IMG/VR virus record: IMGVR_UViG_2531839330_000011
Strand: one strand, 5' to 3'
Source: a virus
Lineage: Duplodnaviria; Heunggongvirae; Uroviricota; Caudoviricetes
Length of the DNA stretch: 35,429 nucleotides
The notes below the pieces were generated by a model that was not told the origin of the DNA, did no database searches, and saw only the letters and a program-made list of their open reading frames with translations. How positions within the stretch are numbered: the stretch's first letter is position 1; each line of letters begins with the position of its first letter. Shown in pieces: positions 6,276-29,247 of the stretch. The translations under genes were made by a program, and so were the position numbers.

Positions 6276-9098
6276 ATGACGACAGAGTACATCAGGGACT
6301 GGCAACAACCGCGCCACGCAGTAGGACGTGAAGGAACGGAGATCCCCGCACCTGAATCCGCACTTTCCTCCTGGCTGGATGCCTACCGGGCAGAGAACGA
6401 ACGCCGCCAGGAAATGGCTGATGCGGCGTTCTCCGCCACACCGCTGGGCAACCTGATTAATAAAAGCCTGGACGCACAGGAAAAACAGGACAAAACCATC
6501 ACACTGGCCAGAGAAGCCAGAAAACAGGCACGCGGCGCGGTGGATGAAGCCATGGCCTCGCTGCGCCTGCTGCCATCCTATCTGCGCGATCCGCTTATTC
6601 GCCACCTCTCCTTCCTGCGCAAAAAACAGGAATCTGACCGCCAGAAAGGTAAAAAGAACCAGCAGGCTGAACGCTACGCGCGCGGGACCCTGCGCAAAAT
6701 ATTCGAACGTCTGGACCGCACCGACCACCGCTGGCTGACACCGGGTTATCGCTCCCTTGCCGGACGCGAACGCCTGGATGATTTGCTTTACCTCCCGCAG
6801 CTCAACAAGCACCAGATACAGACGCTGGCCACCATGACGGCGGCGATGTTCAGCAGCACCTTCGAAAAACTCTGCGATGGCTTTGGCGCGACCGATGGCG
6901 AGCTGACCATGGATGTAACGCTGAAGGCGTATCAGATGCTGGCCCGCATGGCGTTACACCTGCACATCATGCCTCCACATTATGACGCACTGACAACAGA
7001 TAAAGACCGGAGGAACGAACCGGACACGGAGCTGCTGCCGGGCGCAATCCTTCGCCTGACCTGTGCGGAATGGTGGAAACGCAAACTGTGGCTGTTACGT
7101 TGCGAGTGGAGAGAAGAACAACTCCGCGCCGCCTGTCTGGTTTCCAGAAAAACATCGCCTTATCTGAGCCAGGACGCGTTAAGCGAGTTTCGCGCACAGC
7201 GCGAGAAAACACGCGATTTCCTGAAAAGTTTCATGCTGGAAAATGAAGACGGGTTCACGATTGATCTCGAGACAGTGTATTACGCGGGAGTAAGTAACCC
7301 GGTTCACCGTAAGGCAGAAATGATGGCCACCATGAAGGGGCTGGAACTTCTGGCCGAAGCCCGTGGCGACAAAGCGGTGTTTCTGACTGTCACCTGCCCG
7401 TCAAAATACCACGCCACAACAGAGAACGGTCATCCGAATCCCAGATGGAACGGGGCCACCATGCGCGACTCCAGCGATTACCTGGTTAACACGTTTTTTG
7501 CGGCGGTCCGCAAAAAACTGAACCGCGACGGTCTTCGCTGGTATGGCATCCGCACGGGGGAGCCTCACCATGACGGCACCGTGCACTGGCATATGATGGT
7601 CTTTGCACATCCGGACGAGATTGAAACCATCGTGTCCCACGTCTGCGATATTGCCATTCAGGAAGACCGCCACGAGCTGGGCGATGACATAACTCCGCGT
7701 TTTAAGGCGGAGTACGTCGACGGCTCAAAAGGCACACCAACCAGCTACATCGCCACCTACATCGGAAAGAACCTGGACAGCCGCGCCGTGGATGGCATCG
7801 ACCCGAAAACGGGCAAGCCACGCGTTGACCACGAAACCGGAAAATTAATGGCCGAGAGCGTGGAACGCGCCATCGGCTGGGCGCGCCTTCACCGGGTCCG
7901 CCAGTTCCAGTTCTTTGGTATCCCCTCCCGTCAGGTGTGGCGTGAACTGCGCCGCCTTGCCAGCCAGATGGCACGCAACCCGGAAGGCCCACAACGGCTG
8001 AAAGATGACGCAATGGACGCGGTACTCGCTGCCGCTGATGCCGGATGTTTTGCCACCTACATTGAAAAACAGGGTGGCGTGCTTGTTCCACGCAAGGACT
8101 ACCTGATTCGCACCGCCTACGACCTCGCAGATGAGCTGAACGATTACGGCGAACAGAGCGTACAGATTTACGGGATCTGGTCACCACTCATCGGGGAATC
8201 CTCCCGTGTGTGCACGCATCCGGATAACTGGAAGCTGGTAAGACGCAAACCGGAAGCGGAAGACAGCGCCCGCGAAAATGGTTTTGACCTTCAGGGCGGC
8301 CCTGCCGCCCCTTGGACTCGTGGCAATAACTGTCCCCGTGTACAGGAAACGAACAACAACGGGACAGAACAGCCGGAAGAACGGCCAGCACCGTGGCCGC
8401 AGCTCCCTGATGGCGTTGAAGTGAACGAATGGATGCGCTCACTGAAACGGCACGAACGCCGGGCGCTGATGCGTTCGCTTCGTGACAAACAGGCAAAAAA
8501 CAGCAGTGATGAAATGCAGAGCTGGACACAGAGCCGCAAACAGCAGCGGCCTTTGCCTGATAACCACGAATTACTCGCTAAAGAATGGCGGGAATCTGCC
8601 GAATCTCTCGGCCTGCATATCGGTGAACAGCAGATGCAGCACCTGTTACGGGGCGGCAGCCTGTACGTTGACGGCAGCATCATTGCACCGCAGGGATTTG
8701 AAATTGTACGCAAACCGGATCCCAGCCCGGACAGCCGAATCACGCAGCTCTGGCAGCGCCTGAGCCGTAATCACGGCGTAAGCAGCACAGAGATCCGCCA
8801 TAACCCGGTCGCCAGCTATCTGGAACAACTGGGGGCATCAGACCCCGAAGCCGCCGCACGTCTGGCATCCACACTTCAGCAGGACCAGAACACCATGAAA
8901 ACCCCCGTTACCGTGCTTTCTGACATGCTGCGCGCCATCCGTGACGCAGAGCACGCACAGAGAATCAGTGAAACCACTGAACGCGCCCACCGCAAAGCAG
9001 ACCTGCTGCGGGGTAGCCTGACCAATGGAAACAAAAAACAGACAGAAACGGGACTCACAAATCCCGTAAATGAGCAAAAAACGCGCCGCGATATATGA
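6276..9098 (+). CDS. A: Rolling-circle replication initiator endonuclease (P2 gpA family), 940 aa
   Basis: HUH motif (GTVHWHMMVF) followed by a paired-tyrosine motif (TSYIATYIGKN), typical of P2 A / phiX174 A superfamily relaxases. Synteny after the early operon. Longer than P2 gpA as I recall it. Confidence 0.88.
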   Translation: MTTEYIRDWQQPRHAVGREGTEIPAPESALSSWLDAYRAENERRQEMADAAFSATPLGNLINKSLDAQEKQDKTITLAREARKQARGAVDEAMASLRLLPSYLRDPLIRHLSFLRKKQESDRQKGKKNQQAERYARGTLRKIFERLDRTDHRWLTPGYRSLAGRERLDDLLYLPQLNKHQIQTLATMTAAMFSSTFEKLCDGFGATDGELTMDVTLKAYQMLARMALHLHIMPPHYDALTTDKDRRNEPDTELLPGAILRLTCAEWWKRKLWLLRCEWREEQLRAACLVSRKTSPYLSQDALSEFRAQREKTRDFLKSFMLENEDGFTIDLETVYYAGVSNPVHRKAEMMATMKGLELLAEARGDKAVFLTVTCPSKYHATTENGHPNPRWNGATMRDSSDYLVNTFFAAVRKKLNRDGLRWYGIRTGEPHHDGTVHWHMMVFAHPDEIETIVSHVCDIAIQEDRHELGDDITPRFKAEYVDGSKGTPTSYIATYIGKNLDSRAVDGIDPKTGKPRVDHETGKLMAESVERAIGWARLHRVRQFQFFGIPSRQVWRELRRLASQMARNPEGPQRLKDDAMDAVLAAADAGCFATYIEKQGGVLVPRKDYLIRTAYDLADELNDYGEQSVQIYGIWSPLIGESSRVCTHPDNWKLVRRKPEAEDSARENGFDLQGGPAAPWTRGNNCPRVQETNNNGTEQPEERPAPWPQLPDGVEVNEWMRSLKRHERRALMRSLRDKQAKNSSDEMQSWTQSRKQQRPLPDNHELLAKEWRESAESLGLHIGEQQMQHLLRGGSLYVDGSIIAPQGFEIVRKPDPSPDSRITQLWQRLSRNHGVSSTEIRHNPVASYLEQLGASDPEAAARLASTLQQDQNTMKTPVTVLSDMLRAIRDAEHAQRISETTERAHRKADLLRGSLTNGNKKQTETGLTNPVNEQKTRRDI

Positions 9099-9140
9099 AG
9101 CGCGCACAAAACAGGCAAAAGCGGGATTTAAAAATCCTGT
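9049..9140 (+). repeat. Two copies of a roughly 20-bp hairpin-containing motif (ACGGGACTCACAAATCCCGT at 9049..9068; GCGGGATTTAAAAATCCTGT at 9121..9140) spanning the A stop and the parM-like upstream region
   Basis: Read directly from the sequence. Each copy has an internal inverted repeat. Spacing is 72 bp. Confidence 0.4.
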
Positions 9141-9174
9141 AACCGATTAATTAATCAACATAAGGAAAAGCTAC

Positions 9175-10134
9175 ATGAAAATTTGTATCGACGACGGCTC
9201 CACCAACATCAAGCTGGCATGGACTGAGAACGGCGAACGCCGCAACGCCATCAGCCCGAACAGCTTCAAGTCGGAATGGTCTGCGCCGTTCGGTGGCACG
9301 CAGCCCGCGAACTACATGCTTGATGGCGTGCGCTATGGTTTTGATCCGGTCAGCGATCGCTTTGTCCAGACGACCGACACGCAATACCAGTACAGCGATG
9401 TGAATGTAATCGCCATTCACCACGCGCTGGTCAAATCAGGCATCACACCACAGGAAGTGGATGTGGTTGTCACCCTGCCACTGAGCGAATATTTCGACAC
9501 AAACGCACAGCCGGACATGGCCAACATCAACCGCAAAAAAGCGAACGTCATGCGCCCGGTGGAGTACCAGAACGGCGAAGCATTCACTATCCGTAACGTA
9601 CGGGTTATGCCTGAATCCATTCCGGCTGGCTTTAAGGCACTGGCTGACATGAGTCCGTTTGAATCCCTGCTGATTGTGGATTTGGGCGGAACCACGCTGG
9701 ATGTGGCAAAGGTTCAGGGGCAACTGGCAGGTATCAGCCAGGTGTTTTGCGATCCACACGTAGGCGTTTCTCTTATGGCAGATGCCGTACTGTCGGTGAT
9801 GGCCACTAACGGTATGCGCACCAGTCACCACATCGCCAATACCATTATCGAACATCGCCATAATGAAGCATGGCTGCGCCAGCACATCCACAATGACGCG
9901 CATTACGCCAGCCTGATGGCGGTTATTCGTGAAAAGGAAGAAACACTGAAACAACGCGTGATCCGCGCGCTGGCGGTTTTTTCGGGTTACGGGCGGGTGA
10001 TGGTTGTCGGTGGCGGGGCGGAGATTGTGGCACCCGCTATCCGCGAAGCCTGCGGAGTTAATGCGACTTTCATCGCGGACGGGGTGCCACAGTTTGCTCT
10101 GGTTAATGGGCTGTACGCAATGGACAAGGAGTAA
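9175..10134 (+). CDS. parM: ParM/StbA-like actin-type ATPase (type II plasmid partition motor homologue), 319 aa
   Basis: Extensive collinear similarity to plasmid R1 ParM as recalled: IDDGSTNIKL, ISPNSFK, QYSDVNV-A-HHAL, NINRKKAN, VMPESIPAG, DLGGTTLD, GGGAE, LVNG. AAGGA RBS before the ATG at 9175. Confidence 0.85.
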   Translation: MKICIDDGSTNIKLAWTENGERRNAISPNSFKSEWSAPFGGTQPANYMLDGVRYGFDPVSDRFVQTTDTQYQYSDVNVIAIHHALVKSGITPQEVDVVVTLPLSEYFDTNAQPDMANINRKKANVMRPVEYQNGEAFTIRNVRVMPESIPAGFKALADMSPFESLLIVDLGGTTLDVAKVQGQLAGISQVFCDPHVGVSLMADAVLSVMATNGMRTSHHIANTIIEHRHNEAWLRQHIHNDAHYASLMAVIREKEETLKQRVIRALAVFSGYGRVMVVGGGAEIVAPAIREACGVNATFIADGVPQFALVNGLYAMDKE

Positions 10135-10138
10135 ACCA

Positions 10139-10450
10139 ATGACGACACCAACCAGACGGATAAGTTTCTATCTGAAGCCCGCCGCCGTCAAGAACGAAGG
10201 AGAAGCATGCGCCTGGCTGGACAGCCTTACACCAGAAGCCCGCAAAAGCGGCCAACGCGTGGCTTTTCTGGCCGGGCTGGCACTTCTGAAGACGAATCCG
10301 GCAGAGGCTTACCGACTGGCCGCATGGGCTGATGATGAGATGTTACCTGTGACACAAATCAGCTCAAAAAAGTTTGAAGCACAGTCTGCACCAGTGGCTA
10401 AGATAACCAGCCAGATGGCTGGGAATATCCGGGCGTTATTTCCTGAGTAA
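10139..10450 (+). CDS. parR: ParR-like small DNA-binding adaptor (candidate partition centromere-binding protein), 103 aa
   Basis: ATG at 10139 is 4 nt after the parM-like stop, with AGGAG RBS. N-terminal region (RRISFYLKPAAV...RVAFLAGLALLK) resembles the R1 ParR N-terminus. Gene order parM then parR matches R1. Longer ORF 10004..10450 trimmed to the internal start. Confidence 0.6.
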   Translation: MTTPTRRISFYLKPAAVKNEGEACAWLDSLTPEARKSGQRVAFLAGLALLKTNPAEAYRLAAWADDEMLPVTQISSKKFEAQSAPVAKITSQMAGNIRALFPE

Positions 10451-10578
10451 AAGCATCTGCGCGAAAAATGCTCACGTTTATAGAGACAGTATCATTCCAT
10501 CTGGCACACTTACTTCAATAATCGATCTGTTAAACAAATAGATTGTCTATTATCTATCGATTAAAACGATCAATTATC

Positions 10579-10606
10579 TTGACAGTAATGTGCCTTTTTG
10601 TAAGAT
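10579..10606 (+). promoter_or_regulatory. Candidate sigma70 promoter (TTGACA-16 nt-TAAGAT) with a GATC overlapping the -10 hexamer; two further GATC sites and an ATAGA-TTG-TCTAT palindrome (10538..10550) just upstream
   Basis: Read directly: TTGACA at 10579..10584, TAAGAT at 10601..10606, GATC at 10524, 10568 and 10604. Confidence 0.4.
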
Positions 10607-10657
10607 CGTTCGCATTGTGAGCGACAAGATAATTGCGCGGCATTGTCCATGCAAAAC

Positions 10658-10800
10658 GCCCCAATAGCAGCAACTATTGGGGCGTAAAACTCGGTCGGAC
10701 TCACTTAACCTGATATGCGTGCCTTCCGAAGTAAATCAAAATGTGCGTCGTATATTTTATTGCTTACACGCACCTCTGTAAAGGCACGCATATTTTTCCT
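10658..10800 (+). other. Structured leader upstream of the 89-aa ORF: hairpin CCCCAATAG/CTATTGGGG (10659..10682) and a 13-bp perfect inverted repeat ATATGCGTGCCTT (10713..10725) / AAGGCACGCATAT (10781..10793) enclosing a nested GTGCGT/ACGCAC hairpin, followed by ATTTTTCC
   Basis: Read directly from the sequence. The second arm ends immediately before the RBS of the downstream ORF, giving an attenuator-like layout. A 22-codon ORF (ATG 10741, MCVVYFIAYTHLCKGTHIFPMR) lies inside the structure. Confidence 0.35.
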
Positions 10801-10814
10801 ATGAGGTAAATAAA

Positions 10815-11084
10815 GTGCGGGCTAAAACAGGTATTTGCAAGAACCCTCATCGTTATAATCCAACATTTCTGTCTCTCCCTGAATATCAAGGACAAGAAGG
10901 TCGGCACAAATGCGCTGCCTGTGCTTTTGAGCTAGGCATAAAAGATGCGCTTGAAGGACGCGCTATGGCTCAGAATGATTTAGTTTTAGCTAACATTCCG
11001 TTTAGCCAGGCTGGAACTGTAAGGCACAGAGATGCCTATGAAGCATATGTTCGTGGTTGGCGATTAATAAACAGCAACAATTGA
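10815..11084 (+). CDS. Hypothetical 89-aa Cys/His-containing protein, stand-alone transcription unit in the A-to-Q accessory locus
   Basis: GTG start at 10815 with GAGG RBS. Own candidate promoter upstream and a strong intrinsic terminator directly downstream. Spaced Cys/His residues (C8, H12, H31, C33, C36, C37) hint at a small metal-binding fold. No family recognised. Confidence 0.55.
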   Translation: MRAKTGICKNPHRYNPTFLSLPEYQGQEGRHKCAACAFELGIKDALEGRAMAQNDLVLANIPFSQAGTVRHRDAYEAYVRGWRLINSNN

Positions 11085-11093
11085 TACTTTTGA

Positions 11094-11117
11094 AGCGCCG
11101 ATAAGGCGCTTTTTTTG
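11094..11117 (+). terminator. Rho-independent terminator (GCGCC-GATAA-GGCGC followed by T7)
   Basis: GC-rich hairpin plus T-run, 10 nt after the stop of the 89-aa ORF. Confidence 0.8.
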
Positions 11118-11119
11118 TT

Positions 11120-11520
11120 TGCACGATAGTGCACAAGTTTGCACAATTTTTTTGAACGACTTTTTGTACTTCCGGCCCGCGTGGTGGCTGGATCCGTCAA
11201 GGATCCGTACGTGCACAAAAAAACGCGTTTTTTCTGCGCGCAGGTGACGGGGGAACAGCCCGCGTTTCAGGGGGTAAATAGCATTCCCTGAACGATGTCG
11301 CAGAGATAGAACAGAATGGCTGTATTTCTCACGCTGAGCGTGAAAAAGACGTGAGGGCTTTTGATTTGATGGGGTGAAAGGTAAGGCCGTCAAAATCGCA
11401 CTGAGACGGCGAGAACATGCAGTCAACGCGGTGGGATTGCGTAAGAGTCTGACTGTCGATGATGGCAATCAGCAGGAAAGCGTCGTGAAATTATCTGACT
11501 GATACAGGAGCTGGAGAGTC
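11120..11520. other. Non-coding interval between the accessory locus and Q; by P2 synteny the expected location of cos and the packaging site
   Basis: About 400 bp without a convincing ORF. Contains repeated GTGCACAA motifs and GGATCC-N5-GGATCC. The P2 cos sequence was not matched with confidence. Confidence 0.3.
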
Positions 11521-11543
11521 GGGGCATAAATTTTTTATGCCCC
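11521..11543. terminator. Perfect palindrome GGGGCATAAA-TTT-TTTATGCCCC downstream of Q; candidate terminator or packaging-region hairpin
   Basis: 10-bp perfect arms read directly. Lies 28 bp beyond the Q stop. No clean U-tract on either strand, so the terminator role is uncertain. Confidence 0.4.
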
Positions 11544-11570
11544 GGCGAAGCAGCAGACAAGCGAAGCGCG

Positions 11571-26424: not shown

Positions 26425-29247
26425 TCAATCTTTATCGTAAAAACTGCCACGCCCGGCACGGGCGCGCCGTTCCATTTCTGCCCTGACCATTTCACCGACC
26501 AGTTTCGCCAGTTCGCGGGGATTCTGCGTAACAACGTTATGCAGATGAACATGAATTTCACCGCCAAATCCGGAGGCAACAGGCTCCCGGTTACGGGAAG
26601 TTGCAGGAACTGATGCCACTGGCGATCGTATGGCCTCTGCCACCGGGCGGGAGCTGGCCGCAACAACAGGGACCAGCGCCGGAGGCAGCGGAGCCGGAAC
26701 CACAGGTGTGATATTAATTGCGGGGGCAGGCTTACTGCCCTGCGCAATCTTCCGCTCCTGCCACTCCCCACGAACAGCAAGTGCGCGGGGCAGGTTCTTA
26801 AAGACAATATCGCCGGGGCCAATGCGTTTTTTCGTCTCATCAACCAGCTTACCTGTGTTATCAGCAATTTTGCTGAGTCTGCGTAGCGTCCCGGTATTGC
26901 TGTCTGTGAGCGGTTTATTGTCTTTGGGTTTATCGCCTTTTTTGTCGTCGACCTTATCTGACGGGGCCGGGCCGGGAGTCCATGGTTTCTGAACCATTTT
27001 CTTGAGAACCGGATCCCATTCCCACATTACAGGAGCCTTTGAAGCGTTCTCTATTTTCTTTCTCGCCCGTTCCGCTTCATCCGGAAGCACTCCGAGCTTT
27101 TCAAGTATCCACGCCAGTGAATCCATCAATGCTTTTGTTGGCGTCAGGACAAGCTCTATCGCTCCACCGAGTACCCTGCCGAATACCTCGCCAGCACTGG
27201 TACATTTATCCAGCGTTTCCTTGCTGGACTCCATCGGTGACAGCAGCGATTTAAACCAGTTAAAGACCTGAATGATCCCATCGCGCACGACATCAAAAAC
27301 AGGACCGAACCGTTCAAAGGTTTCGCGCAACGGAGCCAGCCGTTCCATAATCCCACTGAACACCCCTGCATAAAACGCCTTGATGGGTTCCCAGTATTTC
27401 CAGATGAGAACCGCCGCAGCCACAAACGCAGCAGCAATCAATCCGACCGGGCTGAACAGCGCCCCGATAGCGCCCCCCAGTAACGAAACGGAACCTGTCA
27501 CCATTCCCCATAGCGCTGGCAGGAGCCTGACAGCATTCATTGATCCGGTCAGGAGGGAAAAACCAAGACGCAGTTTTGCCAGTGGGCCAGCAAGCACACC
27601 AATAGCCAGCGACAACGAGCCTATGGTTGCAGTCATTGCCAGCAGAGCACCGCCTGCAACCAGTAGCTGGCGCGTCAGTGCCGGATGGGCCTGCGCCAGC
27701 GCCGTCACCTTCGATACCACCCGCGTGAGCCACTGCGTGACAGAACGCAGCGGACCGTCAATCAGATCTGCAATGCGGATGCGCAACCCTTCCCATGCAC
27801 TGCCGAGTGATTTCAGATCGCCGTCAAGGTTGTTGGCCATAACCTTTGCTGTGCGTTCAGCCTCACCGCGCGCGCCTTCAAGTTCTTTTCTCAGTTTGGG
27901 TAAGGAACCGTCCCCCGCTGCATCAACGAGGGCCATAAATGATGTGAAAGCCTCTTCTCCGGCAATGTCCTTAAAGAACGATACCCGGTCAACTTCCCCG
28001 TATTTGCGGGTAGCTTTATAAAGGTCAGCCAGCACATCCTCCATCGGGCGCATTTTGCCCCCGGCATCCGAGACGGACACGCCCAGCTCTTTCAGAGCTT
28101 CTGCCGCCGCCTTTGGCGGTGATGCCAGACGAGCCAGGCTGGCACGCATTGCCGTACCGGCATCACTCCCCCTGATGCCCATATTCGCCAGCACGCCCGC
28201 CATAGCTGCGGCCTGCTCCAGCGATATTCCCAGCTTACCCGCCACCGGACCTGCATATTTCATGGTTTCGCCCAGTGCGCGAAGGTCAGTGTTGGTACGG
28301 GTAAACGCTGCGGTGAGCGTGTCACCGACCCGGTCCATCTGGTCAGCAGAAAGGCCGAACTGCGTCAGGATATTTGAGCCAATATCCGCCGTCTCGCCGA
28401 GATCCATACCGCCAGCCGTTGCCATGCTCAGCACGCCGGGAAGCGCAGCCTGAATGGCCTGCGGAGTGAAGCCAGCCATTGCAAGAAATGCCTGCCCACT
28501 GGCGGCATCGCCTGCGGTGAACTGCGTTTCAGAGCCAAGTTTTAACGCCTGCTCACGCAGCGCCTTAAACTGCGGGCTGTTTTTGTCGATTCGCGTCAGT
28601 GCCTGAACGCGGGACATCTCTTTCCCGAACCCGATCGCGGGCTGCAAAAAACGCCCGGCAGCATAGCCGCCCGCCGCTGCCGCACCAATTGCCAGCGCAC
28701 CACCTGTTTTCAGTTTTCCCGCGGTTTCCTGCGCGCGCGAATACCGCTCACGCGCACGTGTTACACGCGCAAGCGCCTGCCGTTCGCGTTCAAGCTGGTT
28801 GTTGTACTGTTCGGCGCGTCTGATGGCCTGCTGGATGGTGTTATCGCTGCCTGTCAGGGAAATGCCGTGGCGTTTCAGCTCTCCGCCAAGCTCCCGCATT
28901 TTCTGAATTTCCCGTGTGCGCGATTCATTCAGGCGTTCAAGCCGGGTGCTTAACTGCTGCATCAGCTTTTGTTGCTTTTCGCTGAGCACTGTACCCGTGC
29001 GTTGTAACTGATTAAGGGCGTTAAGCTGGCGTCGTGCTTTCACGATACCCGCATCCGCTTTACTGACAGCGTCGCGGGCGCGCTCAAATGAACGCGCCTG
29101 ACGCTCGAGATTTTTGATCGCCCCCTGCGTTCGCTGGATGGAGTCACCAAACTGCCCCATCAGGCGGCGGGCGTTTTCGGCAGGCCGGGTCAGCCTGTCA
29201 ACGGCGCTGAAAGCGACCCGGATATCAAGAGTCTTCATTATCTGCAT
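26425..29247 (-). CDS. T: Tail tape measure protein (P2 gpT-like), 940 aa
   Basis: Long coiled-coil N-terminal half, central hydrophobic Gly/Ala-rich segment, large size. Sits between E/E' and U. Confidence 0.9.
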   Translation of the reverse strand: MQIMKTLDIRVAFSAVDRLTRPAENARRLMGQFGDSIQRTQGAIKNLERQARSFERARDAVSKADAGIVKARRQLNALNQLQRTGTVLSEKQQKLMQQLSTRLERLNESRTREIQKMRELGGELKRHGISLTGSDNTIQQAIRRAEQYNNQLERERQALARVTRARERYSRAQETAGKLKTGGALAIGAAAAGGYAAGRFLQPAIGFGKEMSRVQALTRIDKNSPQFKALREQALKLGSETQFTAGDAASGQAFLAMAGFTPQAIQAALPGVLSMATAGGMDLGETADIGSNILTQFGLSADQMDRVGDTLTAAFTRTNTDLRALGETMKYAGPVAGKLGISLEQAAAMAGVLANMGIRGSDAGTAMRASLARLASPPKAAAEALKELGVSVSDAGGKMRPMEDVLADLYKATRKYGEVDRVSFFKDIAGEEAFTSFMALVDAAGDGSLPKLRKELEGARGEAERTAKVMANNLDGDLKSLGSAWEGLRIRIADLIDGPLRSVTQWLTRVVSKVTALAQAHPALTRQLLVAGGALLAMTATIGSLSLAIGVLAGPLAKLRLGFSLLTGSMNAVRLLPALWGMVTGSVSLLGGAIGALFSPVGLIAAAFVAAAVLIWKYWEPIKAFYAGVFSGIMERLAPLRETFERFGPVFDVVRDGIIQVFNWFKSLLSPMESSKETLDKCTSAGEVFGRVLGGAIELVLTPTKALMDSLAWILEKLGVLPDEAERARKKIENASKAPVMWEWDPVLKKMVQKPWTPGPAPSDKVDDKKGDKPKDNKPLTDSNTGTLRRLSKIADNTGKLVDETKKRIGPGDIVFKNLPRALAVRGEWQERKIAQGSKPAPAINITPVVPAPLPPALVPVVAASSRPVAEAIRSPVASVPATSRNREPVASGFGGEIHVHLHNVVTQNPRELAKLVGEMVRAEMERRARAGRGSFYDKD

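Follow-up and report, generated by a model that had tools for sequence, protein, structure and literature searches.

The DNA analysed here, referred to throughout as the window, is a 35,429 bp virus sequence of the class Caudoviricetes (IMG/VR record IMGVR_UViG_2531839330_000011) and represents an integrating P2-like prophage of the P88/Xuanwuvirus type. Positions 8600–10600 share 95–97% identity with phages P88, 520873, P884B11 and Citrobacter phiSM, and they encompass the 3' end of the gene for a gene A-type replication endonuclease (Rep), followed by a parM-parR gene pair (Table 1). Directly 5' of this pair, for which the family assignments are strong, lies the subject of this study, a repeat element carrying two palindromes, M1 and M2, which we consider as the candidate centromere (parC) of a partition cassette. 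ParM matches the structure of R1 ParM (1MWK, E 4e-92) and the ParR-family profile matches pB171 ParR (2JD3, E 1.7e-14). The window ParR, assigned to the ribbon-helix-helix (RHH) family, carries the N-terminal strand TRRISFYL and the C-terminal tail NIRALFPE.

An initial annotation of the window had described two related motifs of about 20 bp, each with an internal inverted repeat, on either side of the gene A stop codon (TGA, 9096–9098), and these were confirmed as M1 and M2. They form the 3' parts of two 38-nt blocks which constitute a direct repeat, 79% identical, and the start-to-start spacing of both palindromes and blocks is 73 bp, not the 72 bp first described. The two blocks span 9032–9142 (about 111 bp), ending 33 bp before the parM ATG at 9175, and the 3' end of the Rep open reading frame (ORF) extends into block 1, an overlap that is incidental. 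A 34-nt degenerate consensus of the two blocks yields only these two matches in the 35-kb window, for a shuffle expectation of 0, and exact matches to CGGGA-N7-ATCC are found in the window only at M1 and M2. The strict form GGG-N10-CCC is present at M1 only; the window M2 is a degenerate allele, with CCT in place of CCC, that is in the minority among relatives. A third exact occurrence of CGGGA-N8-TCCCG, CGGGACATCTCTTTCCCG, was found at 28610–28627 within a 940-aa minus-strand ORF (26425–29247); this site lacks an AT-rich interior and could have arisen by chance.

Table 1. Features of the element and its neighbouring genes, numbered from the first nucleotide of the window
Feature	Position	Strand	Properties
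M1 palindrome ACGGGACTCACAAATCCCGT	9048–9067		arms ACGGGA/TCCCGT; conserved core GGG-N10-CCC at 9050–9065
M2 palindrome GCGGGATTTAAAAATCCTGT	9121–9140		arms GGGATTT/AAATCC(T)
Repeat block 1	9032–9069	+	38 nt; A-rich lead-in, then M1; within the final codons of the Rep ORF
Repeat block 2	9105–9142	+	38 nt; A-rich lead-in, then M2; intergenic
Central GC inverted repeat	9082–9104		CGCGC 9082–9086, GCGCG 9100–9104; flanks the gene A stop codon
ATTAAT(T)AATCAA element	9146–9158	+	ATTAAT invariant in 5 aligned sequences from TRR-type lineages
Candidate parC region	9025–9164	+	46% A; A-tracts phased at 10.5 bp
Tyrosine integrase	1–1002	−	at the beginning of the window
Rep, gene A-type replication endonuclease	6276–9098	+	940 aa; Phage_GPA E 3.3e-129
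parM, actin-like partition ATPase, R1-type	9175–10134	+	Pfam StbA_N E 1.8e-82; ParM C-terminal domain E 3e-68
parR, RHH-family adaptor	10139–10450	+	103 aa; Pfam Plasmid_stab_B (PF10784, StbB/ParR family) E 9.8e-24

The DNA in which the palindromes are embedded is A-rich, and over the candidate region AA periodicity reaches a power of 1.96 at a period of 10.5 bp, a value within the top 0.06% for 140-bp segments of the window and attained by 0.2% of shuffled sequences. The phased A-tracts suggest intrinsic curvature and they hint at further degenerate repeat units, although no tandem iteron family was detected. In particular, tandem 11-bp iterons such as those of plasmid R1 were considered and rejected, the window yielding no such repeat family, only the phased A-tracts. 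The GC palindrome reported between the two motifs is present as a 5-bp inverted repeat, but it did not stand up as a functional part of the element: its folding energy is within the range of shuffled sequences (z −0.7 and −0.4) and it is unconserved outside the closest lineage, in Plesiomonas and the second Hafnia type described below. One possible compensatory change between E. coli and the first Hafnia type was noted, by eye only. The repeat is lineage specific and probably only a spacer.

Conservation across related prophages was examined for 166 related parM-bearing loci. Most of the E. coli-type loci carry two cleaner palindromes of the form ACGGGATT-N4-AATCCCGT, in which the arms are retained and the four bases at the centre vary (CACA, CACG, TACG, TAAA, TCAG and TGAA). 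In most loci M1 is located at −125 relative to the parM ATG, and M2, for which the consensus among relatives is ACGGGATTTCAGAATCCCGT, at −52 in the relatives. ParR alleles that are only 55–83% identical overall conserve residues 1–17, the strand RRISFYL among them, and are accompanied by the same palindromes; the C-terminal N..LFP is also conserved.

In other genera, P2-like prophages carry more distant parMR cassettes, located in the interval from gene A to the portal gene. Relative to the window, ParM is 94% identical in Hafnia type 1 (L097; measured on L096 of the same lineage), 62% identical both in Plesiomonas (L098) and in Hafnia type 2 (L101, L183 and L184; measured on L101), 58% in Serratia (L099) and 54% in Enterobacter (L100). 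A scan of genome contigs for more distant relatives yielded three loci only, scans of viral contigs with the Plesiomonas and Hafnia ParR proteins revealed no further relatives, and a tblastn search of plasmids with ParR detected only P88-like prophage sequences. Among the deposited records, a 34,461-bp circular sequence registered as a non-mobilizable E. coli plasmid (L093, NZ_CP148288.1) resembles a P88-like phage, with Rep, parM, parR and terminase genes, and could represent an excised or episomal state of the phage or else a by-product of assembly.

The motif pair is kept in three deep lineages, E. coli together with Hafnia type 1, Plesiomonas, and the second Hafnia type, all with a TRR-type ParR (see below). 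Pairs of GGG-N10-CCC are positioned at −125/−52 from the parM ATG in the E. coli-type loci, −124/−51 in Hafnia L097, −131/−59 in Plesiomonas and −128/−55 in Hafnia L101, such that the spacing is 72–73 bp in all three lineages and the second motif lies 51–59 bp 5' of the ATG. The surrounding DNA is mostly unalignable between these lineages and the motif interiors vary (ATTCACAAAT, ACAACAAAAA, ATTGAGGAAA and TTCATTAAAT), whereas GGG and CCC are invariant over 27 distinct motif variants from the three lineages. When each upstream region was shuffled 300,000 times, such a pair arose no more than 6 times. Since the half-sites are conserved at a fixed distance, with a free centre, and the spacing of the two copies is also fixed, a protein-binding site is indicated. 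The sequence ATTAAT, about 20 nt 5' of the parM start codon, is an exception in an otherwise largely unalignable region and it may represent a −10-like element or part of a leader.

The element is also independent of coding sequence. In Hafnia L097 the Rep stop codon falls within the M1 loop, in L101 a different ORF, of 167 aa, overlaps M1 and half of M2, and in the Hafnia prophage L183 (1145–1545) an additional, inserted ORF of 93 aa separates M2 from parM, with the motifs remaining at the head of the operon. In this last locus the ATTAAT element is retained beside parM and a TATTAA..AGG leader precedes both the inserted ORF and parM.

The identity of the blocks as direct repeats would accord with the pair being a functionless remnant of a local duplication, carried along with parMR, and one natural variant has indeed lost block 2 together with parMR. 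This variant (L182 2640–2670, NZ_CP115358.1) shows homology ending at window position 9103, inside the central GC repeat; it is without M2, parM and parR, and its Rep gene, with M1, is fused to an ead/Ea22-like gene. However, the pair, its spacing and its position persist where ParM is only 62% identical and the flanking sequences have diverged, and we give very little credence to a passive remnant.

A further property of the motif is its co-variation with the type of ParR. Every motif carrier has a ParR beginning TRR(I/V)SFYL, whereas cassettes with an NRK-type ParR (NRKISFYL; L099, L100, L126 and L144) lack the GGG-N10-CCC motif and carry a different inverted repeat of about 19 bp, which resembles the IncL/M iterons. 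In the Serratia and Enterobacter loci (L099 3380–3470 and L100 3380–3450) this repeat, GGGAACrAAAyAGAAAAAT, is arranged around a short GC palindrome and followed by GCCGTTTAAACGGC, and it constitutes a different candidate centromere. The relationship with Rep is otherwise, as the motif is present in L101, where Rep is 33% identical to that of the window, and absent from L099, where Rep is 46% identical. As judged from these comparisons, the motif goes with the ParR/ParM lineage rather than with that of Rep.

This distribution bears on the proposal, also made in the initial annotation, that the motifs are elements of the phage replication origin, possibly accessory sites bound by the A protein. 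The motifs adjoin or overlap the 3' end of gene A and the P2 origin is located in the 3' part of A. Nevertheless, the P2 nick site (29892) lies in A codons aligning with window Rep residues 672–690, and the sequence at 8304–8333, GCCGCCCCTTGGACTCGTGGCAATAACTGT, is identical to the P2 nick region in 25 of its 30 positions. It is part of the interval 8296–8333, corresponding to P2 29874–29911, which is one of two colinear DNA matches (E < 0.001) between the window and P2 A genes. The nick-region string is conserved in the Rep genes of L098 (Plesiomonas), L099 (Serratia) and L101 (Hafnia), and nothing resembling the P2 nick sequence was found at 9032–9142. The phage origin is therefore predicted at 8296–8333, about 750 bp upstream of the motifs, which do not co-vary with Rep and in Hafnia are located outside the Rep gene. 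We rejected the origin reading on these grounds and leave even an accessory role only the slimmest chance. The C-terminal part of Rep beyond the nick region, about 250 residues (~690–940, window 8340–9095), yields tblastn matches confined to 14 P88-like phage records, which are also the sole ParR-matching records in the phage collection.

The palindromes could, alternatively, be operators for another dimeric regulator, of phage or host, that controls read-through or initiation into parMR. Many repressor sites typically have this form, a 20-bp palindrome whose arms are conserved while its centre is free, and M2 lies just 5' of parM. However, the motif tracks the N-terminal type of ParR rather than the phage backbone, and no other conserved gene travels with it, both the downstream cargo and the upstream genes differing by lineage, so that a regulator other than ParR appears unlikely. 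The cargo occupies the slot between parR and the ogr or portal gene (window 10451–11570; also in L099, L100, L183 and L006) and includes, in different lineages, HicAB, a KAP NTPase, SocA_Panacea and ead/Ea22. In the window the slot holds an 89-aa ORF without a family assignment (10815–11084), preceded by a promoter-like site (10579–10606) and followed by a terminator-like hairpin (11092–11112).

The motifs were originally described as paired hairpins. The palindromes are real, but neither a stem nor a U-run is conserved, only GGG/CCC and the spacing being kept. This was established by folding both strands, by terminator scans of the window and three relatives, and by pair counts over the 27 variants, and the hairpin and terminator readings were rejected. 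One such reading would involve plus-strand RNA hairpins at the A-parM junction that affect mRNA stability, processing or translational coupling. The plus-strand fold exceeds that of shuffled sequences (z −3.5 for M1 and −2.1 for M2), both substitutions of the window M2 relative to the consensus give plus-strand G-U pairs, and a few double changes occur at outer pairs. Set against this, stem pairs 6–8 break uncompensated in 4–7 of the 27 variants, the M1 T-to-C change favours the opposite strand, and Plesiomonas and the second Hafnia type keep only GGG/CCC around a 10-nt interior, too weak a stem. No relevant Rfam 15 match occurs in 8800–9400 at E values up to 1, and an RNA function at the junction seems quite improbable.

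On the plus strand, neither hairpin is followed by a T/U-run. On the minus strand each hairpin precedes a T-rich run, and the motifs might then be intrinsic terminators of minus-strand transcription, shielding the early operon from antisense transcripts out of the variable cargo region. M1 in the window, and both motifs in Hafnia L097, are listed as terminator-like. Nevertheless, the minus-strand fold of the window M2 does not exceed that of shuffled sequences (z +0.4), and Plesiomonas and the second Hafnia type (L098 and L101) lack both the long arms and the T-run, which reads as an A-run on the plus strand, and yielded no terminator-like site. Moreover, a terminator would be oddly placed within the Rep ORF and behind two antisense genes, and we consider shielding of this kind very improbable.

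A regulatory site for the partition genes had also been suggested, and this possibility is compatible with a ParR site, since the R1 parC doubles as an operator (PMC2241845). No promoter was located for such a role: no sigma-70-like site was predicted between A and parM in L097, L098 or L101, nor in the window itself, by a scan that also misses the promoter region of R1-type parC, such that the negative result carries little weight, although the same scan finds a core promoter on an IncL/M-type parC. The conserved ATTAAT at 9146–9155 is a weak promoter candidate.

The reading that we favour, with moderate confidence, is that 9025–9164 constitutes a cis-acting centromere and operator (parC) of a phage-borne type II ParMRC cassette, and that it is bound by ParR. 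Among the functions first suggested for the motifs, ParR-binding centromere-like sites are the best supported, on comparative evidence, because the position matches that of a type II parC, because the pair, its spacing and its distance from parM are kept across genera, and because the motif tracks the N-terminal type of ParR. Type II systems are defined by a cis site confined to one locus directly 5' of the parM-parR operon (PMC5016525), and this is the arrangement found here, together with a cognate actin-like ParM, an RHH ParR with a C-terminal tail, and a site whose sequence is specific to, and co-varies with, its ParR. The palindrome pair would form a compact, split and palindromic parC in a phage setting.

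In the mechanism proposed here, the conserved repeats, the way they vary with the type of ParR and the family assignments of ParM and ParR are observed, whereas the binding of ParR, its stoichiometry, the bending of the DNA and the biological role are inferred. ParR would bind as RHH dimers, inserting the N-terminal strand TRRISFYL into the major groove at the CGGGA and TCCCG half-sites, and each 16–20-bp site would hold one pair of dimers. The sites, 73 bp apart, are separated by about seven helical turns on DNA that, in this lineage, carries A-tracts phased at 10.5 bp, and, given this spacing on phased and presumably curved DNA, the two ParR assemblies may lie on the same face of the DNA and generate a small bent segrosome, like that of the split R1 parC. 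The conserved ParR tails (N..LFP) could then capture the ends of ParM filaments, a contact suggested by analogy with the protein family, and the filaments would move or separate circular phage genomes after infection or excision. ParR at M2, just 5' of parM, may in addition autoregulate parMR.

Several observations weigh against a parC assignment. The sites are palindromic and two in number, while characterised parC loci carry 4–10 tandem direct iterons of about 10–20 bp, an array that was not found here; the element consists of two clear inverted-repeat units 73 bp apart. The degenerate M2 allele is found in about 30 of the 166 loci, including the window. A-tract phasing extends to Hafnia type 1 but is lacking from Plesiomonas and Hafnia type 2, and is a lineage feature rather than a defining one. 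The co-variation with ParR amounts to three deep motif-bearing lineages compared with a single NRK clade, the motifs of the E. coli and Hafnia type 1 lineage resemble minus-strand terminators, and the lack of a predicted sigma-70 promoter between A and parM in the window leaves the operator role unanchored.

The segment extending from the Rep tail to the start of parM (8950–9350) is present in 1304 of 5426 complete E. coli genomes (about 24%), and all but two of its 1443 places are chromosomal (1441), the two being on plasmids. Since the segment is almost wholly chromosomal and the early operon lies 5' of the cassette, the likely substrate is the phage genome in its circular form, following infection or excision. 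Prophage Sp13 of E. coli O157 Sakai carries the segment, and this prophage excises, circularises and is amplified about 30-fold on treatment with mitomycin C, with induction of its early genes (PMC2669165). More speculatively, a phage-specific ParMRC clade on integrating P2-like prophages of several Enterobacterales genera might rely on a minimal centromere of two palindromes for moving or segregating the circular phage genome when this has been excised or newly injected, giving an otherwise integrating phage a transient plasmid-like or spatially organised replicative state. We advance this idea tentatively and regard it as possible rather than probable; a corollary, if it is correct, is that a working centromere is silent in the host chromosome.

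If ParR binds the palindromes, they would constitute the centromere of a partition system carried by an integrating phage rather than by a plasmid, and the use of an actin-like segregation machine to such a phage becomes a testable question. The parC would also be very small and defined, with two 16–20-bp palindromes seven turns apart, and thus convenient for structural and single-molecule studies of the segrosome. Assigning the element to the parMR cassette, and the origin to 8296–8333, corrects the annotation of P88-like phages. A literature search yielded no description of a parC, or of any role for parMR, in P2-like phages, and a phage-borne, compact and palindromic parC appears to be undescribed in the searchable literature.

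Two-fold symmetric operators of about 20 bp, each taking two RHH dimers, are known for the repressors Arc, Mnt and CopG, and they differ from the element proposed here in being purely transcriptional, with no partition role. The parC of plasmids R1 and NR1 (stbA/stbB) is similar in lying directly 5' of parM-parR, in consisting of two repeat blocks around a central spacer and in serving homologous ParM and ParR proteins. Its coding strand is likewise A-rich, R1-type parC showing an AA periodicity of 2.27 at a period of 10.6 compared with 1.96 at 10.5 for the window, and on our reading the right half-sites of the window (AAATCCC) resemble the A-tract-plus-CCC form of the R1 iterons. R1 parC has been described as strongly curved (PMC2241845). 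It differs in carrying 11-bp direct iterons in two groups of five, one on either side of a 39-bp promoter core, over 159 bp, whereas the window has two 16–20-bp palindromes over about 111 bp, no recognisable central promoter, a left block located under the Rep ORF, and an integrating phage, instead of a plasmid, as carrier.

The ParR proteins of pSK41 and pB171 are also RHH adaptors. In pSK41, ParR contacts the centromere on the basis of 10-bp repeats, each dimer occupying one parC iteron (PMC5016525), which would fit with one dimer pair per 20-bp palindrome here, but the pSK41 repeats form a continuous tandem array (PMC5016525), whereas the half-sites in the window are inverted and belong to two separate sites. 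A parallel from an integrated prophage is the AlpAC/alpS system of Corynebacterium CGP3, in which an actin-like filament protein is combined with an adaptor that binds DNA repeats 5' of the operon. Its genes are switched on soon after excision, and circular phage DNA is what the system works on (PMC4446434). The protein families are unrelated in sequence to those of the window, the gene order is opposite and alpS consists of 24 short repeats (TTAAnnG). Moreover, the function of the CGP3 system was shown by experiment, whereas that of the window is inferred. AlpAC/alpS provides a precedent, established by experiment, for prophage-encoded actin-like machinery working on phage DNA after excision.

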